Source: an uncultured Gemmatimonadales bacterium (GTDB lineage: Bacteria; Gemmatimonadota; Gemmatimonadetes; Longimicrobiales; Gaopeijiaceae). Taken from it: a stretch of DNA of 64,000 bases. The notes under the pieces were generated by a model. The model ran no database searches. It saw only the letters and a list, made by a program, of their open reading frames with translations, and was not told the origin of the DNA. Positions 13,932-22,598 of the stretch are shown here, piece after piece. The stretch lies in assembly GCA_963848895.1 (NCBI GenBank), contig CAWKGE010000008.1, forward strand, positions 196,901-260,900, given 5' to 3'. Made by a program: the position numbers and the translations under genes. How positions within the stretch are numbered: position 1 is the first letter of the stretch; the number at the start of each line of letters is the position of its first letter.

Positions 13932-15584
13932 ATGCGCCGCCTGGACCTCCGGATCGTAGCCTTTTCCCTCGCGCTCCCCCTCGCAGCCTGCTCGGACACC
14001 GGCGCCCCCGGGAGCGACGCCATCACCGAGGCCCGCCTGTCGGCCGACCTCCACGCCCTGTCCGCCGACTCCATGCAGGGTCGCCTGGTGGGCACCCCCG
14101 AGCACGCCGAGGCGGCCGATTGGGTGCGGGCGCGCTTCGATTCGCTGGGGCTGGAGCCGGCCGGCGACGCCGGGACCTACGACCAGCGCTTCGACATGGT
14201 GTGGGTCAGCCTGGGCGACGGAAACACGCTGACGGTCTCGGGCGCGGGCGGCGCCCGTGCGCCCGGGAAGGGCTGGACGCCGGCGAGCTTCGCGGCGAAC
14301 GCCTCCGCGTCGGGCCGCGTCGTGTGGGCGGGCTATGGGATCGTGGAGCCCCGGCTCGGGTGGGACGACTACCAGGGGCAGGACGTGCGCGGCCGGATCG
14401 TGCTCGCGCTGGACGGGGAGCCCGGAGCCGACGACCCGGCGAGCCCCTTCGACGGCCTGGTGACGGCCGAGGCGAGCCGTCCGTGGCGCAAGGCCCTCGC
14501 CGCGCAGGAGCGGGGCGCAGCCGGCATCCTGTTCGTGCGCTACGCACCGGGCCGCGCGGAATCCGAGGACTGGGCCCGGATGAACGCCGCCGCGTGGCCG
14601 GGCGAGCCCAGGCGCATCGAGCGGTTCACCCTCGGCGATTGGGCGGAGGACGTCACGATCCCCGGGGCCGAGATCTCCACCGAGCTCGCGGAGGCGCTGG
14701 TGGCGGGTAGCGGCCGCATGCTGGCTTCCCTGGCGGAGGCGTCGGAGGCCGCGGAGCACGGGCTCGGCGTCGTCACGTTGCAGGGTGCCCGCGCCAGCCT
14801 CACCACCGCGGTCGAGCGGCACGTCACCGAGGGCCGCAACATCCTGTCGATGATCGAGGGCTCCGATCCGGAGCTGAGCAACGAGGTGATCATCATCGGA
14901 GGCCACTACGACCACAACGGCGCCGACAGCACGGGCGTGTACAACGGCGCCGACGACAACGCCTCCGGCACCGTGGGCGTGATGGCGATCGCCGCGGCCT
15001 ACGCGGACGCCGCCAGGCGCGGGGAGCACCCCCGCCGCTCGGTGATGTTCGCGGTCTGGGATGCGGAGGAGCGCGGCCCCCTGCTGGGGGCCTGGTACTA
15101 CACGCTCCGGCCGCTCTTCCCCATGCCGCGCACGGCCGCGGTGCTCAACCTCGACATGATCGGGCGGAACGAGGAGGTGCCGGCGGACGGCGGCGGACGG
15201 TTCCGCGGTCTCGAGCCCCAGCCGGCGGACTCGAACGCCAACGCGGTGAACATCCTCGGCTACAGCCGCACGCCGGAGCTCGCTGCCGCGGTGCAGGCCG
15301 CCGACGAGGCGTACGGCCTGACCTTGCGCATGCGCTACGACAACAACGAGTCGAACCTGCTGCGCCGGAGCGACCACTGGCCGTTCCTGCAGAACGGCGT
15401 GCCGGCGATGTGGTTCTTCACGGGGCTGCACCCGGACTACCACACGCCGCGGGACGACGCCGACCGGATCAACTACGACAAGATGACGCGCATCGTGCGC
15501 CTGGTTCACCAGACGAGCTGGGACCTGGCGAACGCGGACGGGCGTCCCGTCGTGGAGGGGATGAAGAGCCGGCCCCGCTCGTGA
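13932..15584 (+). CDS. M28 family zinc aminopeptidase lipoprotein.
   Basis: Signal/lipobox MRRLDLRIVAFSLALPLAACS with an AGGAG RBS. Metal-binding motifs present (GGHYDH, DDNASG, WDAEE). 550 aa. Confidence 0.8.
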   Translation: MRRLDLRIVAFSLALPLAACSDTGAPGSDAITEARLSADLHALSADSMQGRLVGTPEHAEAADWVRARFDSLGLEPAGDAGTYDQRFDMVWVSLGDGNTLTVSGAGGARAPGKGWTPASFAANASASGRVVWAGYGIVEPRLGWDDYQGQDVRGRIVLALDGEPGADDPASPFDGLVTAEASRPWRKALAAQERGAAGILFVRYAPGRAESEDWARMNAAAWPGEPRRIERFTLGDWAEDVTIPGAEISTELAEALVAGSGRMLASLAEASEAAEHGLGVVTLQGARASLTTAVERHVTEGRNILSMIEGSDPELSNEVIIIGGHYDHNGADSTGVYNGADDNASGTVGVMAIAAAYADAARRGEHPRRSVMFAVWDAEERGPLLGAWYYTLRPLFPMPRTAAVLNLDMIGRNEEVPADGGGRFRGLEPQPADSNANAVNILGYSRTPELAAAVQAADEAYGLTLRMRYDNNESNLLRRSDHWPFLQNGVPAMWFFTGLHPDYHTPRDDADRINYDKMTRIVRLVHQTSWDLANADGRPVVEGMKSRPRS

Positions 15585-15734
15585 GTGCCTCGGTACGTCC
15601 GGCGGTGACACGTTGTTCGCCAGCATGTGCTACTTCCCCTGTACGCGGTCTTGGGTATCTGGTCACGATCCGGGCCGAGCGCCCGGAGGCGGGCCCTTGA
15701 CCCTTTCCGGTCCCGCGGCCAGCTTCTTCGGACC

Positions 15735-15815
15735 ATGAGCCATACGATCCGCGTCCGGCACCACCATCATCACCACGCGACCCACACGGGTGGCGGGAGG
15801 GCGGTGCGCGCCTAG
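15735..15815 (+). CDS. hisL: his operon leader peptide (26 aa: MSHTIRVRHHHHHHATHTGGGRAVRA).
   Basis: A short ORF about 110 nt upstream of hisG contains six consecutive His codons (15759-15776) plus two further His codons. It is followed by a GC hairpin and a T-run. Confidence 0.7.
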   Translation: MSHTIRVRHHHHHHATHTGGGRAVRA

Positions 15816-15840
15816 GACGCGAGTCCAGCGAAGCATCCCA

Positions 15841-15875
15841 CCGCGGCCCGAGAGATCGGGCCGCGGTCTTTTTTT
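15841..15875 (+). terminator. Intrinsic terminator (attenuator) between the his leader and hisG.
   Basis: Perfect 10-bp stem ccgcggcccg / cgggccgcgg with a 6-nt loop, followed by tcttttttt. Confidence 0.75.
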
Positions 15876-15922
15876 GTCCCGGGCGAGAGCTCCGGGAGGC
15901 ACGAACGGCGGGAGACGGGAGC

Positions 15923-16807
15923 ATGACCGATTCGACGAAAGGCCGCATCCGGGTGGCGCTGCCCAACAAGGGGCGCCTGTCCGAGAAGGCGGTGGCGCTT
16001 CTCGAGCAGGCGGGGCTGCGGCCGACGCTGCGGGGCGACCGGGCGCTGGTAGCGGACCTGGGACAGGACTTCCAGGCCTTGTTCGTGCGCGCCGCCGACA
16101 TCCCCGAGTACGTCGCCGACGGCGCCGCGGAGGTCGGTATCACCGGCGCGGATCTGGTGGCGGAAAGCGGCCGCGACGTGGCCGAGGTGCTCGACCTGGG
16201 CTTCGGCTTCTGCCGCCTGTGTGTCGCCGTCCGCGACGACTCGCCGGCCGCGTCGCTGACCGACCTCCCGGCGGGGACCCGGGTCGCCACGTCCTTTCCC
16301 CGCATCGCGCGGCGCTACTTCGAGGCGCTCGGGATTCCGATCGAGATCGCGCCGGTGACCGGCGCCACCGAGATCGCCCCCCACCTGGGCGTGGCCGAGG
16401 TGATCGTGGATCTCGTGTCGACGGGCTCGACGCTGCGCATGAACCAGCTCAGGGAGATCGACACGATCATGACGTCCACGGCGCGCCTGGTGGCGAACCC
16501 GGGCGCCCTCGAGGACCCGCGCGTGGCGCCCGCCGTCCGCGAGCTGGGCACGGCGCTCGAGTCCGTGCTACGGGCCGAGGCCAAGCGGTATCTGATGGCC
16601 AACGTGCCCCGCGGAAGGCTCTCCGAGGTACGCGAGGTCATCCCCGGCATCAACGGCCCCACGATCGTCGAGGTGCTGGACGGCGACGGGTGGGTGGCCG
16701 CACACGCGGTGGTGGACGCGGACCAGGTCTATCAGACGATCGCGCGCCTCAAGGCGCTGGGCGCCGAAGGAATCCTGGTCACCCGCATCGAGAGGCTCAT
16801 GCCATGA
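15923..16807 (+). CDS. hisG: ATP phosphoribosyltransferase, long form.
   Basis: 294 aa, intact, with a GGGAG RBS. The stop overlaps the hisD start (ATGA). Confidence 0.9.
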   Translation: MTDSTKGRIRVALPNKGRLSEKAVALLEQAGLRPTLRGDRALVADLGQDFQALFVRAADIPEYVADGAAEVGITGADLVAESGRDVAEVLDLGFGFCRLCVAVRDDSPAASLTDLPAGTRVATSFPRIARRYFEALGIPIEIAPVTGATEIAPHLGVAEVIVDLVSTGSTLRMNQLREIDTIMTSTARLVANPGALEDPRVAPAVRELGTALESVLRAEAKRYLMANVPRGRLSEVREVIPGINGPTIVEVLDGDGWVAAHAVVDADQVYQTIARLKALGAEGILVTRIERLMP

Positions 16808-18127
16808 GCGGCTCCGATCCGCTGCGCCTCTTCGCCGAGGGCCGCCTGGCCGACCTCGCACCCGACCTACGCCGGCACCTCCTCCTGCGTGCCCCTGTGG
16901 GCGAGCCGGACCTCACCGCCGCCGTCGCCGCCCTTCTCGCGGAGGTGCGGGCGCGCGGCGACGAGGCGCTGCTCGAGATGGCCGAGCGCTTCGACGGCGT
17001 CCGCCTCACCTCACTGGAGGTGCCGCGACCACGCTGGGACGAGGCCGCGGCCGCGCTGAACCCCGCGGTGCGGGCGGCGCTCGAGCGCGCCGCCGTGAAC
17101 ATCCGCCGCTTCCACGAGGCCCAGCTCCCCTCCGACGTGACGCTGGACGTGGAGCCGGGGGTACGAGTGACGCGGCGGTGGGCCCCCCTGGACACCGTGG
17201 GCGTCTACGCCCCGGGGGGCCGCGCCGCGTATCCCTCTTCGGTGCTCATGGGCGTCGTGCCCGCACGGGCCGCCGGCGTCCGCGAGGTGATCGTGTGCTC
17301 GCCCCCGACCCCCTCCGGCGAACCGTCGGCCGAGGTGCTCGCCGCGTGCGCCATCGGCGGAGCCGACCGGCTCTTCGCCGTGGGCGGCGCAGGCGCCGTG
17401 GCCGCGATGGCCTGGGGGACGCGCCACCATCCCCGCCGCGGACGCGGTGGTGGGTCCCGGCAACCGCTGGGTCACTGAGGCCAAGCGGCAGGTGGCGGGC
17501 CGCGTGGTCATCGACGCCCCGGCCGGTCCGTCCGAGGTGCTCGTCCTCGCCGACGCCACCGCCGACGCCGACCTGGTCGCGTGCGAGCTGCTGGCGCAGG
17601 CGGAGCACGACCCGGACGCTGCGTGCGTGCTCGTGACGACCGCGCCCGCGCTCGCCAGCGGCGTCCGCGAGGCGTTGGTCGCGCGCCTCGAGGCGGCGCC
17701 ACGCCGTGAGGTGGCGGCTGCCGCGCTGGCGGCCTCCGGCGCCCTGCTCGTGGCAGACTCGCAGGACGAGGCCATCGCCTTCGCGGAGGCCTACGCGCCG
17801 GAGCACCTCTCGCTGATGATCTCCGGCGGCGAGGCGCTGGCCTCGCGCATCGCCACGGCGGGCACCACGTTCGTGGGCCCGTGGGCCTCCGTGGCCTTCG
17901 GCGACTACATGACCGGCGCCAACCACGTGCTGCCCACGGCGGGCCGGGCGCGCAGCTTCTCCGGGCTGTCCACGCAGCACTACCTGAGGTCGTACACGGT
18001 GCAGGAGATCACCGAGCAGGGCGCGGCCGCCCTGGCGGACGACGTCGCCCTGCTCGCCGAGGCGGAGGGGTTGCCCGCCCACGCGGCGGCCGCCCGAGCG
18101 CGACAGGCGCCCAGGAGAAGCCCATGA
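16804..18127 (+). CDS. hisD: Histidinol dehydrogenase. There is one apparent frameshift at about 17425 (extra base in acgcgcc).
   Basis: N-terminal 205 aa are in frame 1 (…FAVGGAGAVAAMAWGT). The continuation …TIPAADAVVGPGNRWVTEAKRQV… is in frame 2 and runs to the stop at 18127. A 4-nt overlap with hisC follows. Confidence 0.8.
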
Positions 18128-19190
18128 GCCCGTTCCCCCGCGAGGACTACCGGGAGCTGAAGCGCTACCACTTCGACCGCACGCCGGTGGCGCTCGACCT
18201 GAGCGACAACACCAACCAGTGGGGCACGCACCCCGCCGCCCTGGAGGTGCTGCGCCGCGCGGACCACGACGCGCTGGCCCGCTACCCCGACCTCTACGCC
18301 GACAACCTGCGCGCAGCGGCCGCCACGCGGGCGGGCGTCGCCGAGGACTGCATCGCCACCGGGTGCGGCTCGGACGACGTGCTCGACTGCACGTACCGCG
18401 CATCGGGGGGCGGCCCGGGGATTTCGTGTCGATCGCCGCGCCGACCTTCTCGATGGCCACGCCGCTGGCACGCATGAACGGGATGCGTGCTCGCCTCACG
18501 CCGTGGGCGGACGCCCTCGACGACCCGGAACGTTTGCTCGCGGGCGGTCCCGCCCTGGTCTACGTGTGCCGACCGAACAACCCCACCGGACACGTCACGC
18601 CCCGGGCCTGGATCGACGCGCTGCTCGACGGGGTCGGGCGAGGACGGCCCGCTGCTCCTCCTCGACGAGGCCTACATCGACTTCGGCGGGGAGCCGCTCG
18701 GCGACGCGCGCGGCCGAGCACCCGCGGCTGCTCGTGTCGCGGACGCTCTCGAAGGCGTTCGGCCTCGCGGGGATGCGCATCGGTTACGCGGTGGCAGCGC
18801 CGTCCACGGTGTCCGAGGTCGAGAAGGCCCGGGGACCCTACAAGGTCGGTCGCCTGGCCGGGGCGGCGGGGGCAGCCGCGCTCGCCGACGAGGAGGGGTG
18901 GGTGACGCGCACGGTGGCCGAATGCGTCGCGAACCGCACCCGGGCGGAGGAGATGCTCGCGGCGCGCGGACTCGGGCCGCTCCCGTCGTCCGCCAACTTC
19001 ATCCTCTTCCGGGCTCCTTCGGGGGACGCGATACGGGACGCTCTCGCGGTCCGCGCGAAGGGCGTGGCCGTGCGGCCGTTTCCGGGCGACATGCCCGACG
19101 GCGCTGACGCGCTCCGCCTGACGGTCGCGCCGTGGCCGCTCATGGCGCGGTTCTTCGAGGCACTGGACGCGTACCTGGCGGAGCCGATGA
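18124..19190 (+). pseudogene. hisC: Histidinol-phosphate aminotransferase gene with at least three apparent frameshifts (near 18405, 18650 and 18715). No in-frame stop separates it from hisH.
   Basis: Conserved HisC segments are spread over three frames: MSPFPREDYRELKRYHF...GCGSDDVLD; GDFVSIAAPTFSMATPLARMNG...NNPTGHV; EDGPLLLLDEAYIDF; RTLSKAFGLAGMRIGYAVA...TVAPWPL. The last frame runs directly into the hisH ATG at 19187. Deleting one C in gagccgatga would give the usual ATGA overlap. Confidence 0.7.
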
Positions 19191-19795
19191 ACGTCGCCCT
19201 CTTCGACTACGGCGCGGGCAACCTGCACTCCCTGGGCAAGGCCCTGGAGCGCGCGGGCGCTACGGTGCGCGTCACGCGCCGACTGGGACGAGGCGCTCGG
19301 ACAGGACGCCCTCGTCCTTCCCGGCGTCGGGGCGTTCGGCGCCGCCGCGGCCGCGCTTGCCGCCGGACCGGGCGCCGCTGTGGCGGGCGCTCGCGGAGGG
19401 GCTTCCCGTGCCTCGGCATCTGCCTGGGGATGCAGCTCCTGTTCGACGGACAGCGAGGAGTCCGCGGGATCCGGCATCGGCGCTGGTGCCGGGACGCGTC
19501 GTGCGGCTGCGCGCCCCCGTGGTCCCCCAGATGGGGTGGAACGACGTCGAGACGGCGGACGACCCGATCTTCCACGGCACGAAGCCCCTGGTCGCGTACT
19601 ACGCCAACTCGTTCGTGTGCGCAGCCGGACGACCCCGGGGACGCGATCGCCTGGAGCGAGTACGGGGGCGTGCGCTTCGCGGCCGCGGTTCGCCGCGCCC
19701 GGACCTGGGGCGTGCAGTTCCACCCCGAGAAGAGCTCGGCGCGGGGACGCATCCTCCTGGCCAACTGGGTCGCCCTGGCGGGAGGCCGACGATGA
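19187..19795 (+). pseudogene. hisH: Imidazole glycerol phosphate synthase glutaminase subunit gene with about five apparent frameshifts.
   Basis: HisH motifs are found successively in frames 2, 0, 2, 0, 1 and 2: [30 protein letters not shown]; [20 protein letters not shown]; [16 protein letters not shown]; [14 protein letters not shown]; [41 protein letters not shown]; [36 protein letters not shown]. The stop at 19795 overlaps the hisA ATG. Confidence 0.7.
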
Positions 19796-20555
19796 TCGTC
19801 GCGCCGGCCGTCGACCTGAGGGGAGGGCGCTGCGTGCAGCTCGTCGGCGGTCGGCCCGGAGGACGAGCGCGTCTCCCTCCCCGACCCCGTCGCGGTCGCG
19901 GAGCGCTGGTGGCGCACGGGCTTCCGCACGCTCCACCTCGTGGACCTCGACGCCGCCCTGGGCGCCGGAGACAACCTGTCGCTGCTTCAGGAGCTGATCG
20001 GCGCCACACCCGCCGACACGCAGGTCGGGGGAGGCATCCGGGACGACGCGAGGGTGGCCGCCCTCCTCCGAGCCGGTGCCGACCGCGTGGTGGTGGGTAC
20101 CCGCGCCCTGGACGACCCGCGCTGGCTCGCCGCGCTCGTCGCGCGTCACCCCGGACGCGTGGTGGTCGCCGCGGACACGCGCGAGGGCCAGGTGCTGCGC
20201 AAGGGCTGGACCGAAGGCTCCGGCCTGAGCGTGGCCGATTTCCTTCAACGCATGGCCGGGCTGCCCCTGGCGGGCGTGCTCGCCACCGACGTGGGGCGCG
20301 AGGGCCGACTGGCGGGGATCGCAGCGGGAGGCGGTTGCGCATACATTGCGCTCGACGGCGCATCCCGTGTGGGTCTCCGGCGGCGTCACGACCGAAGACG
20401 AGCTCGCCTGGCTGGACGGCGAGGGTGCCGGCGGCGCGGTGGTGGGGATGGCGCTGTACACCGGGGTCCTGGATCCGGCGCGACTCGCAGCGCGCTGGGG
20501 CACGGCCGGAGACCGATCCGTCGACGACAGAGAGCAGGTGGGAGAAGAAACGTGA
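19792..20555 (+). CDS. hisA: ProFAR isomerase gene with two apparent frameshifts (near 19850 and 20330).
   Basis: [20 protein letters not shown] is in frame 1. [18 protein letters not shown]...[11 protein letters not shown]...[13 protein letters not shown] is in frame 2. [21 protein letters not shown]...* is in frame 1 and ends at 20555. Confidence 0.75.
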
Positions 20556-21091
20556 GCAAGCTGCAGAGGGAGACCCGAGAGACCCAGATCCTGTGCCAGG
20601 TGCGCCGCGGCACCGGCGAGGCCGGCGTGCAGATCGCCGACCGCTTCCTCAGCCACATGGTCGAGACGCTGGCGCGCTATGCGGGGCTGGACATCACGAT
20701 CGAAGCCGCGGGCGACCTGCGACACCACCTGGTCGAGGACGTGGCGATCACGCTCGGCCTGGCGCTCAAGGACGAGGTCCCCGAGAAGGCGGCGCGCTAC
20801 GGCTGGGCGCAGGTGCCCATGGACGAGTCCCTCGCCGAGGCGGCCATCGACCTGGGCGGTCGGCCGTACTACGTGGGCCCGCTCCCCTCCAAGCTGTACA
20901 CGCATTTCCTGCACTCCTTCGCCACCAACCTGGGGGCCACGCTGCACGTGCGGGTGCTCCGAGGCGAGGACCGCCACCACCGGGTCGAGGCCGCGGTGAA
21001 GGCCGTGGGTCTCGCCCTGCGCCAGGCGATGGCGGAGGGGGACAGCGTGTTCAGCACCAAGGGTGCCGTGCGCATGAAGCGGATCGACTGA
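20552..21091 (+). CDS. hisB: Imidazoleglycerol-phosphate dehydratase (monofunctional).
   Basis: GTG start overlaps the hisA stop. The 179-aa ORF is intact and carries IGPD motifs ([33 protein letters not shown]). Confidence 0.8.
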
Positions 21092-21873
21092 TGCTCCGTC
21101 CGCGCGTGATCGTGTGCCTCGACGTGAAGGATGGCCGCGTGGTGAAGGGGACCCGGTTCGAGGGGCTGCGCGACGTAGGCGATCCGGTGGAGCTCGCGGC
21201 CCGCTACGAGGCCGAGGGAGCCGACGAGATCGTCTACCTCGACGTGTCCGCGTCCCGCGAGGGACGGGGCACGCTGCTCGACACGGTGCGCCGCACCGCC
21301 GAGACCCTCTTCATCCCGCTGACCGTCGGCGGCGGCGTGCGCTCGGCCGACGACATCGGCCCACTCCTGCGCGCAGGCGCCGACAAGGTCAGCGTGAACA
21401 CCGCGGCCGTGAGGGATCCAAGCCTGCTGTCCCTCGGCGCCGAGCGCTTCGGGAGCCAGTGCATGGTCGCCAGCATCGATGCGGCGCGCGCAGGCGACGG
21501 TTGGCGCTGCTACACCCACGGGGGGTCGCGGCCGACGGATCTGGGCGCGGTGGCGTGGGCAGCGGCGTGCAAGGAGCGCGGCGCCGGCGAGATCCTCCTC
21601 ACCTCCATCGACCGCGACGGGGCCCGCACCGGCTACGACCTGGCGCTCACCCGGGCGGTGGCCGACGCCGTCCCCGTGCCCGTGATCGCGTCCGGGGGCG
21701 CCGGTGCCGCGGAGCACCTCCGCGAAGCCTTCACGGTGGGGCGGGCCTCGGCGGCGCTGGTTGCCGGGATCCTGCACGACGGCCTCACGACAGTGGGCGC
21801 GCTCAAGTCCGCCCTCGCAGGGTGGGACATCGCCGTGCGCAGCGTGGACGACGGGGAAGGAGCGGCCGCATGA
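21091..21873 (+). CDS. hisF: Imidazole glycerol phosphate synthase cyclase subunit.
   Basis: 260 aa, intact ([15 protein letters not shown]...SGGAG...). The start overlaps the hisB stop by 1 nt. Confidence 0.9.
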
Positions 21874-22500
21874 ACGACCGGGCGTTGGGCAACGCCGACG
21901 ATCTGGAGGGGCTCTCGTACGGCGAGGACGGCCTCGTGCTCGTCGTGGCGCAGGACGCCCGGGACGGGCGGGTGCTCATGGTGGCCTGGGCGAACCAGCA
22001 TGCGCTGGAGCGCAGCCTGGCGACGCGCGAGATGCACTTCTGGTCGCGGTCGCGGTCGCAGCTGTGGAAGAAGGGGGAGACGAGCGGGAACGTGCTCCGG
22101 GTGGTGTCGCTGCACGCCGACTGCGACGGCGACGCGGTGCTCGCGCGCGTGCACCCCACCGGGCCCGCGTGCCACACGGGAGATCCGACGTGCTTCGGCG
22201 AGGGGGCGGACCCCGAGGGGCTCGGAGCCGTGCTCGTGGCGCTGGACGCAACGATGGCGGGGCGCGCGCGGGCGCGACCCGAGAGGAGCTACACCGTCCG
22301 CCTTCTCGACGACGAGAACCTCCGCCTGAAGAAGCTGGGCGAGGAGACGGCCGAGCTGGTGGCGGCGCTGGCCCGGGGTGACGGGGAGCGCACGAGGGAG
22401 GAGGCCGCCGATCTGCTCTACCACCTCCTCGCCGCGCTTCGCGCCGCGGGGCGTGCACCTCGACGAGGTGGCCGCAGCGCTGGCGGCCCGGAGGCGCTGA
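21870..22500 (+). CDS. hisI: Bifunctional phosphoribosyl-AMP cyclohydrolase / phosphoribosyl-ATP pyrophosphatase. There is one apparent frameshift near 22455; as given, the ORF runs to 22538.
   Basis: HisI motifs (…[51 protein letters not shown]…CHTGDPTCF) are followed by a HisE helical domain. Removing one G in gcgggg restores …[18 protein letters not shown] with the stop at 22498-22500. Confidence 0.8.
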
Positions 22501-22598
22501 GCAAGCCCCACCCGCACCCTGCGCCGTCTGGGGGGTAGGAAGATGAGTCGGGACGGTGCAGGTCGCCGCTCGACAGGGTCCCGGGAAAGGAGGGTACA

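Follow-up and report, generated by a model that had tools for sequence, protein, structure and literature searches.

A probable histidine leader-peptide attenuator upstream of hisG conserved across Gemmatimonadota

The his locus and its leader region

The window, i.e. the whole 64-kb stretch of DNA analysed, has a GC content of 71% and carries a histidine biosynthesis operon on its plus strand. The first gene, hisG, starts with the ATG at 15923 and encodes a 294-aa product that matches the Pfam families HisG and HisG_C. Between the preceding gene and hisG lie a short ORF rich in histidine codons and a GC-rich hairpin with a T run. The following features were assigned to this region:

15735-15815, plus strand: leader ORF, hisL-like, from ATG 15735 to TAG 15813-15815, encoding MSHTIRVRHHHHHHATHTGGGRAVRA*
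15759-15776, plus strand: candidate regulatory codons, an uninterrupted run of six for His (CAC CAC CAT CAT CAC CAC)
15840-15875, plus strand: intrinsic terminator with a 12-bp stem, a 4-nt loop and T7 (-27.5 kcal/mol; covariation; scan)
15910-15914, plus strand: GGGAG Shine-Dalgarno sequence of hisG, outside the terminator hairpin and separated from the ATG by 8 nt (direct reading)
15923-22538, plus strand: his operon, the presumed target of regulation, with hisG (15923-16807), hisD, hisC, hisH, hisA, hisB, hisF and hisIE (Pfam)

The initial annotation of this DNA had reported a leader peptide of 26 aa with 8 His, six consecutive His codons at 15759-15776, a 10-bp GC stem with a 6-nt loop and a T run, and hisG downstream behind GGGAG. 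A direct reading of 15500-16100 confirmed all of these elements at their coordinates, MSHTIRVRHHHHHHATHTGGGRAVRA being indeed a peptide of 26 aa with 8 His, and extended the stem. In the hairpin, ccgcggcccg (15841-15850) pairs with cgggccgcgg (15857-15866), starting 25 nt past the leader stop; flanking A-U pairs lengthen the stem to 12 bp around a 4-nt loop (15840-15867), with 15840-15851 as terminator 5' arm. The T7 run at 15869-15875 ends 47 nt before the hisG ATG. Both elements are exceptional in this DNA. The pattern (CAY)6 has one occurrence in the 64-kb window and none in 100 shuffles, and a search of both strands of the 64 kb for hairpins of -20 kcal/mol or lower with T5 or more retrieved the leader terminator alone.

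The window-wide scan yielded in addition a weaker terminator candidate on the minus strand, at about 8126. Genes in this genome apparently end by some means other than strong canonical terminators.

Compared with the intact genes of three relatives (L002, L004, L008), hisD and hisC of the window (16747-19186) are each split over two reading frames: hisD has frame 1 at 16747-17376 and frame 2 at 17417-18076, hisC has frame 1 at 17713-18693 and frame 2 at 18689-19186. The hisD frameshift resembles one extra base near 17421-17428 (acgcgccacc). The splits are either assembly indel errors or pseudogenes, and hisA and hisB may be affected by frame splits too.

Conservation among relatives

Relatives were collected by a HisG protein scan with one genome per species. 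The scan gave 28 Gemmatimonadota MAGs labelled Longimicrobiales or Gemmatimonadales (68-86% identity), one Eisenbacteria MAG and 51 haloarchaeal loci; all relatives are MAGs. The closest HisG proteins, with 84-86% amino acid identity, belong to Longimicrobiales/Gemmatimonadota MAGs, in agreement with the earlier impression of a Gemmatimonadota-type genome. Locus L011 has only 46 nt of upstream DNA; leaving it aside, 28 leaders were examined, those of 27 MAG loci and of the window. A His-rich ORF and a hairpin ahead of hisG, for which the initial annotation had suggested looking in related genomes, are kept in all of them: each of the 28 has, 70-170 nt before hisG, a His-rich ORF of 25-32 codons with a hairpin right behind the His codons, and further on a GC-rich stem-loop that ends in a T run. 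An upstream M28 peptidase neighbour is common to the window and its closest relative, L001, only. The neighbour thus changes, being different in 27 of the 28 loci, and the module stays, hence the module belongs to hisG and not to the preceding gene. An assignment of the terminator to the M28 peptidase gene was rejected, as that neighbour is common to one of the 28 loci.

A covariance model built from the 28 leader sequences matched the Eisenbacteria locus, a sequence outside the training set, over its full length and in the expected position, although weakly (24 bits, E = 8e-4). Neither the 51 haloarchaeal hisG loci nor the rest of the window gave a match to this model.

The Eisenbacteria locus (L029:349-536, Candidatus Eisenbacteria MAG JANLWK010000084.1) has a His-rich leader ORF, MARLARHHAHHVHHGPTGRGARRMTIRTT, before hisG, together with a promoter-like pair TTGACC-17-TACGCT and a hairpin with a T run, outside Gemmatimonadota. 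The element could descend from an ancestor common to the FCB group, or its presence could result from transfer or from mis-binning.

The next-best HisG matches (L030-L080) were all from Halobacteria (48-55% identity) and not from other bacteria. This ranking may be an artefact of a scan seeded by exact peptide words, or it could reflect an inter-domain relationship of this long-form HisG.

Putative promoter and translation initiation

Two conserved boxes precede the leader ORF:

15697-15702, plus strand: -35-like box TTGACC of the putative leader/his promoter, conserved in 29 loci
15720-15725, plus strand: -10-like box CAGCTT (consensus nA(G/C)CTT), 17 nt past the -35-like box and 9 nt before the ATG

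It took a comparison of the 45-60 nt before the ATG across loci to bring out this promoter. TTGAC(G/C/T) occurs in all 29 loci, window included (TTTAC in L019), 31-39 nt before the leader ATG. In the -10-like box, position 2 is A in 27 of the 29 loci and position 6 is T without exception, and the gap between this box and the ATG measures 5-10 nt in 28 of 29. The spacing of 17 nt from TTGAC to the second box is constant in the 29 loci and the spacer sequence diverges. The window has a single copy of the pattern TTGAC-N18-20-ANCTT, against 0.07 expected, and 22 relatives likewise have one copy each in the corresponding position. A Shine-Dalgarno-like motif before the leader ATG is absent in the window and present in only two of the 29 loci. 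Given a distance of 5-10 nt between the promoter-like boxes and the ATG and the lack of a Shine-Dalgarno sequence in front of it, the mRNA that carries the leader ORF is probably leaderless or almost so; judged by the position of the boxes, transcription would start 0-3 nt before the leader ATG. The TTGAC-17-nAGCTT boxes offer a candidate promoter consensus for this lineage.

A leader-peptide attenuator with a conventional 5' UTR would read these data differently: transcription would start further upstream, initiation on the leader ORF would be independent of a Shine-Dalgarno sequence, and the TTGAC/AGCTT boxes would be, e.g., a regulator site. In favour of such a 5' UTR, CAGCTT is a weak -10 box with a poor match to TATAAT, and a generic sigma-70 consensus scan called no promoter at the leader. 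A search of the literature on Gemmatimonadetes and leaderless translation had as its sole match a study whose anti-Shine-Dalgarno table lists the class with a low value (22) (PMC10783764); if that value denotes Shine-Dalgarno usage, internal initiation without this sequence could be common in Gemmatimonadetes. This alternative is harder to reconcile with the constant 17-nt distance between TTGAC and A..T across diverging spacers and with the 5-10-nt gap to the ATG in 28 of 29 loci, and the near invariance concerns the most critical -10 positions (A at 2, T at 6). We therefore hold a conventional 5' UTR to be unlikely, yet a serious competitor to the leaderless arrangement.

Two leaders (L001:1205-1216 and L006:2835-2846) start with ATGACCATGACC, in which a second in-frame ATG lies 6 nt from the first. 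Of the two, the second alone has the usual 8-nt distance from the -10-like box in L006, which suggests the second ATG as the true start in that locus.

Structures of the leader RNA

Besides the terminator, the leader RNA contains or is predicted to contain the following elements:

15746-15825, plus strand: long imperfect hairpin predicted for the untranslated leader (MFE), segment 1a (15746-15768) pairing with segment 2b (15800-15825)
15773-15797, plus strand: hairpin 1b:2a ('protector'; -15.8 kcal/mol, covariation, RNAalifold)
15787-15801, plus strand: segment 2, proposed 5' strand of the antiterminator, CGGGUGGCGGGAGGG (MFE under ribosome mask)
15815-15826, plus strand: small hairpin GGAC-GCGA-GUCC, which overlaps the stop codon (-6.1 kcal/mol)
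15836-15850, plus strand: segment 3, proposed 3' strand of the antiterminator, which overlaps the terminator 5' arm (folding, complementarity)

The fold of the leader RNA is more stable than that of shuffled sequences (z = -3.9), and RNAalifold proposed, unprompted, two conserved helices, namely the terminator and the 1b:2a hairpin. The terminator is 94% paired across the 28 sequences and shows double changes from G-C to A-U; none of 500 shuffles matched its covariation. Directly after the His codons, segment 1b, formed by the last His codons and GCGACCC (15773-15783), pairs with its partner 2a, GGGUGGCGGG (15788-15797). This helix is 92% paired with 10 double-change cells, a result reached by 0 of 500 shuffles. 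Segment 1a includes His codons and the codons before them, and the G-rich segment 2b spans the stop codon, the whole ORF becoming one long hairpin; the 1a:2b pairing amounts to 73% over the 28 sequences against at most 48% when the strands are slid (3 of 500 shuffles reach it).

The small hairpin at 15815-15826 has a GNRA-type loop. Its stem GGAC/GUCC is replaced by GGAU/AUCC in L008 and L010, and it shrinks to 3 bp in several Gemmatimonadales-type loci; in the switch it may act as a pause site or a spacer.

The similarity of segment 3 (CAUCCCACCGCGGCCCG) to segment 1 (CAUCACCACGCGACCC) is what a common pairing partner, segment 2, would require, and segment 2 closely resembles the terminator 3' arm. 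Thus segment 2 has the choice between 1b and 3, and segment 3 the choice between 2 and 4, the 3' arm. The alternatives among 1b, 2, 3 and 4 are the classical four-segment arrangement. They also substantiate the alternative pairing which the initial annotation had suspected within 15777-15840: 15787-15801 can pair with 15773-15783 or with the terminator 5' arm. As complementarity, the 2:3 pairing is 83% conserved across the leaders. Its columns are nearly invariant and consequently display no covariation beyond shuffles, of which 399 of 500 reach the observed pairing; a second antiterminator register fits about equally well, likewise with no covariation above shuffles. In the 28 leaders the 2:3 duplex has a mean energy of -24 kcal/mol compared to a mean of -25 kcal/mol for the terminator. 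Against shuffled G-rich sequence the gain is modest, with a mean z of -1.3 and 16 of the 28 leaders below -1. From the complementarity and the folding models we infer an antiterminator that would exclude the terminator, in one or the other register.

The influence of the ribosome position was modelled by masking. When the complete leader was folded at equilibrium under such a mask, the terminator persisted in every state, the stalled one included; the terminator wins at equilibrium, hence the switch would have to be kinetic. A second mask model used transcripts that end just short of the terminator 3' arm, with a mask of 30 nt centred on the A site. For the window, a ribosome placed on the His codons makes the MFE structure in this model identical to the 2:3 antiterminator; a ribosome at the stop codon lets 1b:2a form and leaves segment 3 only weakly engaged. 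Averaged over the 28 leaders, freeing the terminator 5' arm costs 12.6 kcal/mol with a mid-His stall, 7.3 kcal/mol with the ribosome at the stop codon and 5.7 kcal/mol with no ribosome. The margin of the stalled cost is 3 kcal/mol or more over the stop-codon cost in 21 of the 28 leaders and over the no-ribosome cost in 24; in seven leaders the simple mask model gives no separation of the stalled and the stop state. Averaged pairing probabilities of this arm in the cut transcripts (0.79 stalled, 0.70 stop, 0.67 no ribosome) discriminate poorly, because the C-rich arm always finds G-rich partners; the energy costs tell the states apart better. A ribosome at the stop codon leaves segment 2a uncovered, unlike in trp, thus the attenuation model needs 1b:2a to re-form behind the ribosome.

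Histidine codons and indirect support for translation

In the alignment of the 28 leaders the ATG is invariant, the ORF length is 25-32 aa throughout, and the His triplets are always in frame with the ATG and the conserved stop. The leader ORFs of the relatives code for 5-9 His per peptide in a cluster. Among the 171 His codons of the leader clusters, 85 are CAC and 86 CAU (50% CAU), whereas hisG of the same loci has 82 CAC and 8 CAT among 90 (9% CAT). This enrichment of CAU in the leaders has a Fisher p of 3e-12 for sequences that are not phylogenetically independent. The free interchange of CAC and CAU (85 to 86) shows that His identity is conserved rather than nucleotide sequence, and the synonymous drift points to selection on codon meaning, i.e. 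on translation. RNA structure gives no explanation for the CAU bias, since the third positions of the His codons pair with G in the long hairpin either as C-G or as U-G. Relaxed selection for fast decoding may be the cause; alternatively, slow decoding may be favoured because it would render the sensor more sensitive. A C-terminal peptide tail ..A(A/T)xTGGGxxVRA* is conserved in Longimicrobiales-type loci; TGGG..VRA is probably conserved because its codons form the strand of the long hairpin that is complementary to the His codons.

The in-frame position of the triplets and their synonymous drift also bear on a different kind of switch, one that binds a protein, a tRNA or a metabolite (T-box-like, a riboswitch, or HutP/TRAP-like) and in which the His codons would be read by a factor other than the ribosome. 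T-boxes control his operons in Lactobacillales and Corynebacterium (PMC9413887), and an antiterminator that lacks covariation support would suit such a switch. Ribosome decoding, however, fits the CAC/CAU drift and the constant frame between ATG and stop, and the leader of about 140 nt is too small for a T-box. Rfam searches gave no match to His_leader (RF00514), T-box (RF00230) or riboswitch families at 15300-16200 with E values up to 10, and no His_leader, T-box or riboswitch match at the gathering score in 20 relatives. A binding switch is accordingly very improbable. Similarities to sRNA models (e.g., sX12 with 25.7 bits versus a gathering score of 106) were dismissed as weak and terminator-like.

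Least probable of all, with hardly any chance in our judgement, is a functional His-rich small peptide, e.g. a metal-binding one, with the hairpin merely as its terminator and no sensing of histidine by stalling: the conserved C-terminal tail could reflect selection on the peptide, but it coincides with the RNA segments 1b, 2a and 2b that show base-pair covariation, the element is always found directly upstream of hisG whatever the upstream gene, a terminator before a same-strand operon with no promoter of its own would silence that operon and no second promoter-like site was found between 15875 and 15923, and a run of codons for the end product of the operon is the hallmark of a leader peptide.

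Proposed mechanism and significance

We consider it highly likely, on the strength of comparative sequence analysis and folding models, that the element is a ribosome-mediated his attenuator which is conserved in Gemmatimonadota and has an evolutionary origin separate from that of enterobacteria. According to this model, the TTGAC-17 nt-nAGCTT promoter would set the transcription start roughly 0-3 nt ahead of the leader AUG, and a ribosome would probably load directly onto the 5' end, as on leaderless mRNA. With plentiful His-tRNA the ribosome would pass the six His codons and reach the UAG, and 1b:2a (15773-15797) would re-form behind it. As 1b:2a ties up segment 2, segments 3 and 4 would form the terminator (15840-15867 plus U7), and the RNA polymerase would stop 47 nt before hisG. 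With scarce His-tRNA the ribosome would stall on the His codons and its footprint would cover segment 1b. Segment 2 (15787-15801) would then be free to pair with segment 3 (15836-15850) once the latter is made, the terminator 5' arm would be sequestered, and the polymerase would read through into hisGDCHABF(IE). If the ORF is not translated, the whole leader would fold into the long hairpin (1:2) and the terminator would form.

A full-text literature search, with some key surveys outside its scope, retrieved no paper that links Gemmatimonadota with leader peptides or attenuation. Within this incomplete coverage, the remark of the initial annotation that attenuation is undescribed in this phylum stands. 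Classical leader-peptide attenuation would thus be extended to a poorly studied, mostly uncultured phylum, as the first concrete cis-regulatory element for amino acid metabolism in Gemmatimonadota and as another case of convergent evolution in which the same logic is realised by unrelated sequence. The 28 natural variants may serve for the study of a terminator-type attenuator with a probably leaderless sensor in RNA of 70% GC, and the short ORF deserves annotation as a leader. The understanding of the attenuation mechanism itself is unchanged: an ordinary mechanism would have a new lineage-wide occurrence and an unusual codon bias. A wider generalisation combines several of these features and has, in our view, an even chance of being right: Gemmatimonadota, and possibly neighbours in the FCB group (e.g., Eisenbacteria), would have an independent attenuator in every sampled locus, with a leaderless sensor ORF on which the first ribosome loads at the nascent 5' end, so that coupling exists from +1, and with a sensitivity tuned by the enrichment of the rare codon CAU.

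Comparison with known systems

The initial annotation had seen in the leader the textbook attenuation of enterobacterial his operons. The architecture and its conservation in 28 of 28 loci bear this out; homology to the enterobacterial leader does not hold, as sequence and structure of the Gemmatimonadota leader gave no RF00514 match in the window at E values up to 10 or in 20 relatives at the gathering score. Like hisL of enterobacteria, the leader has a short ORF with a run of His codons (seven in E. coli and Salmonella, six here) and an intrinsic terminator before hisG. The mutually exclusive hairpins chosen by the ribosome position and the complete base-pairing of the untranslated, terminating leader are also shared, as predictions in our case. 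Differences concern the peptide, which is longer in Gemmatimonadota (25-32 aa versus 16), the leader ORF, which lacks a Shine-Dalgarno sequence and is probably leaderless, and the His codons, which lie 12 codons before the stop and not near it, with the consequence that a ribosome at the stop leaves segment 2 unmasked. The model of the Salmonella his attenuator by Johnston et al. in 1980 reportedly comprises six segments, A-F; the leader described here has four main segments (1b, 2a, 3 and 4).

Leaderless sORFs with poly-Cys codons are known from mycobacteria as the 'Cys ribulon', where a stalled ribosome unmasks the RBS of the next gene and control is exerted at the level of translation (bioRxiv 10.1101/834739). 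These actinobacterial Cys sORFs resemble the his leader in the position of the ORF at or next to the 5' end of the transcript, in the run of codons for the amino acid of the pathway and, as predicted here, in the remodelling of the downstream RNA by a stall within this run. The sensed amino acid is His instead of Cys, and given the intrinsic terminator the his leader would act on transcription; its leaderless status is deduced from promoter geometry only.

Independent His-leader attenuators have been predicted in the Bacillus cereus group, Peptostreptococcaceae and Erysipelotrichales (PMC9413887), and His leaders upstream of hisS/hisZ in Bacillus (PMC2965389). Like the Gemmatimonadota element, those of the Firmicutes are of independent origin, restricted to lineages and discovered by the same comparative logic (PMC9413887; PMC2965389), and they combine tandem His codons (3-5) with terminator and antiterminator hairpins before his operons. 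The element described here differs by its occurrence in another phylum, its unrelated sequence and its very GC-rich helices, and whereas the His leaders of Firmicutes are confined to few genera, it was present in all 28 sampled loci of Gemmatimonadota. The documentation of independent His-leader attenuators in several lineages makes a repeated evolution of this control plausible (PMC9413887; PMC2965389).
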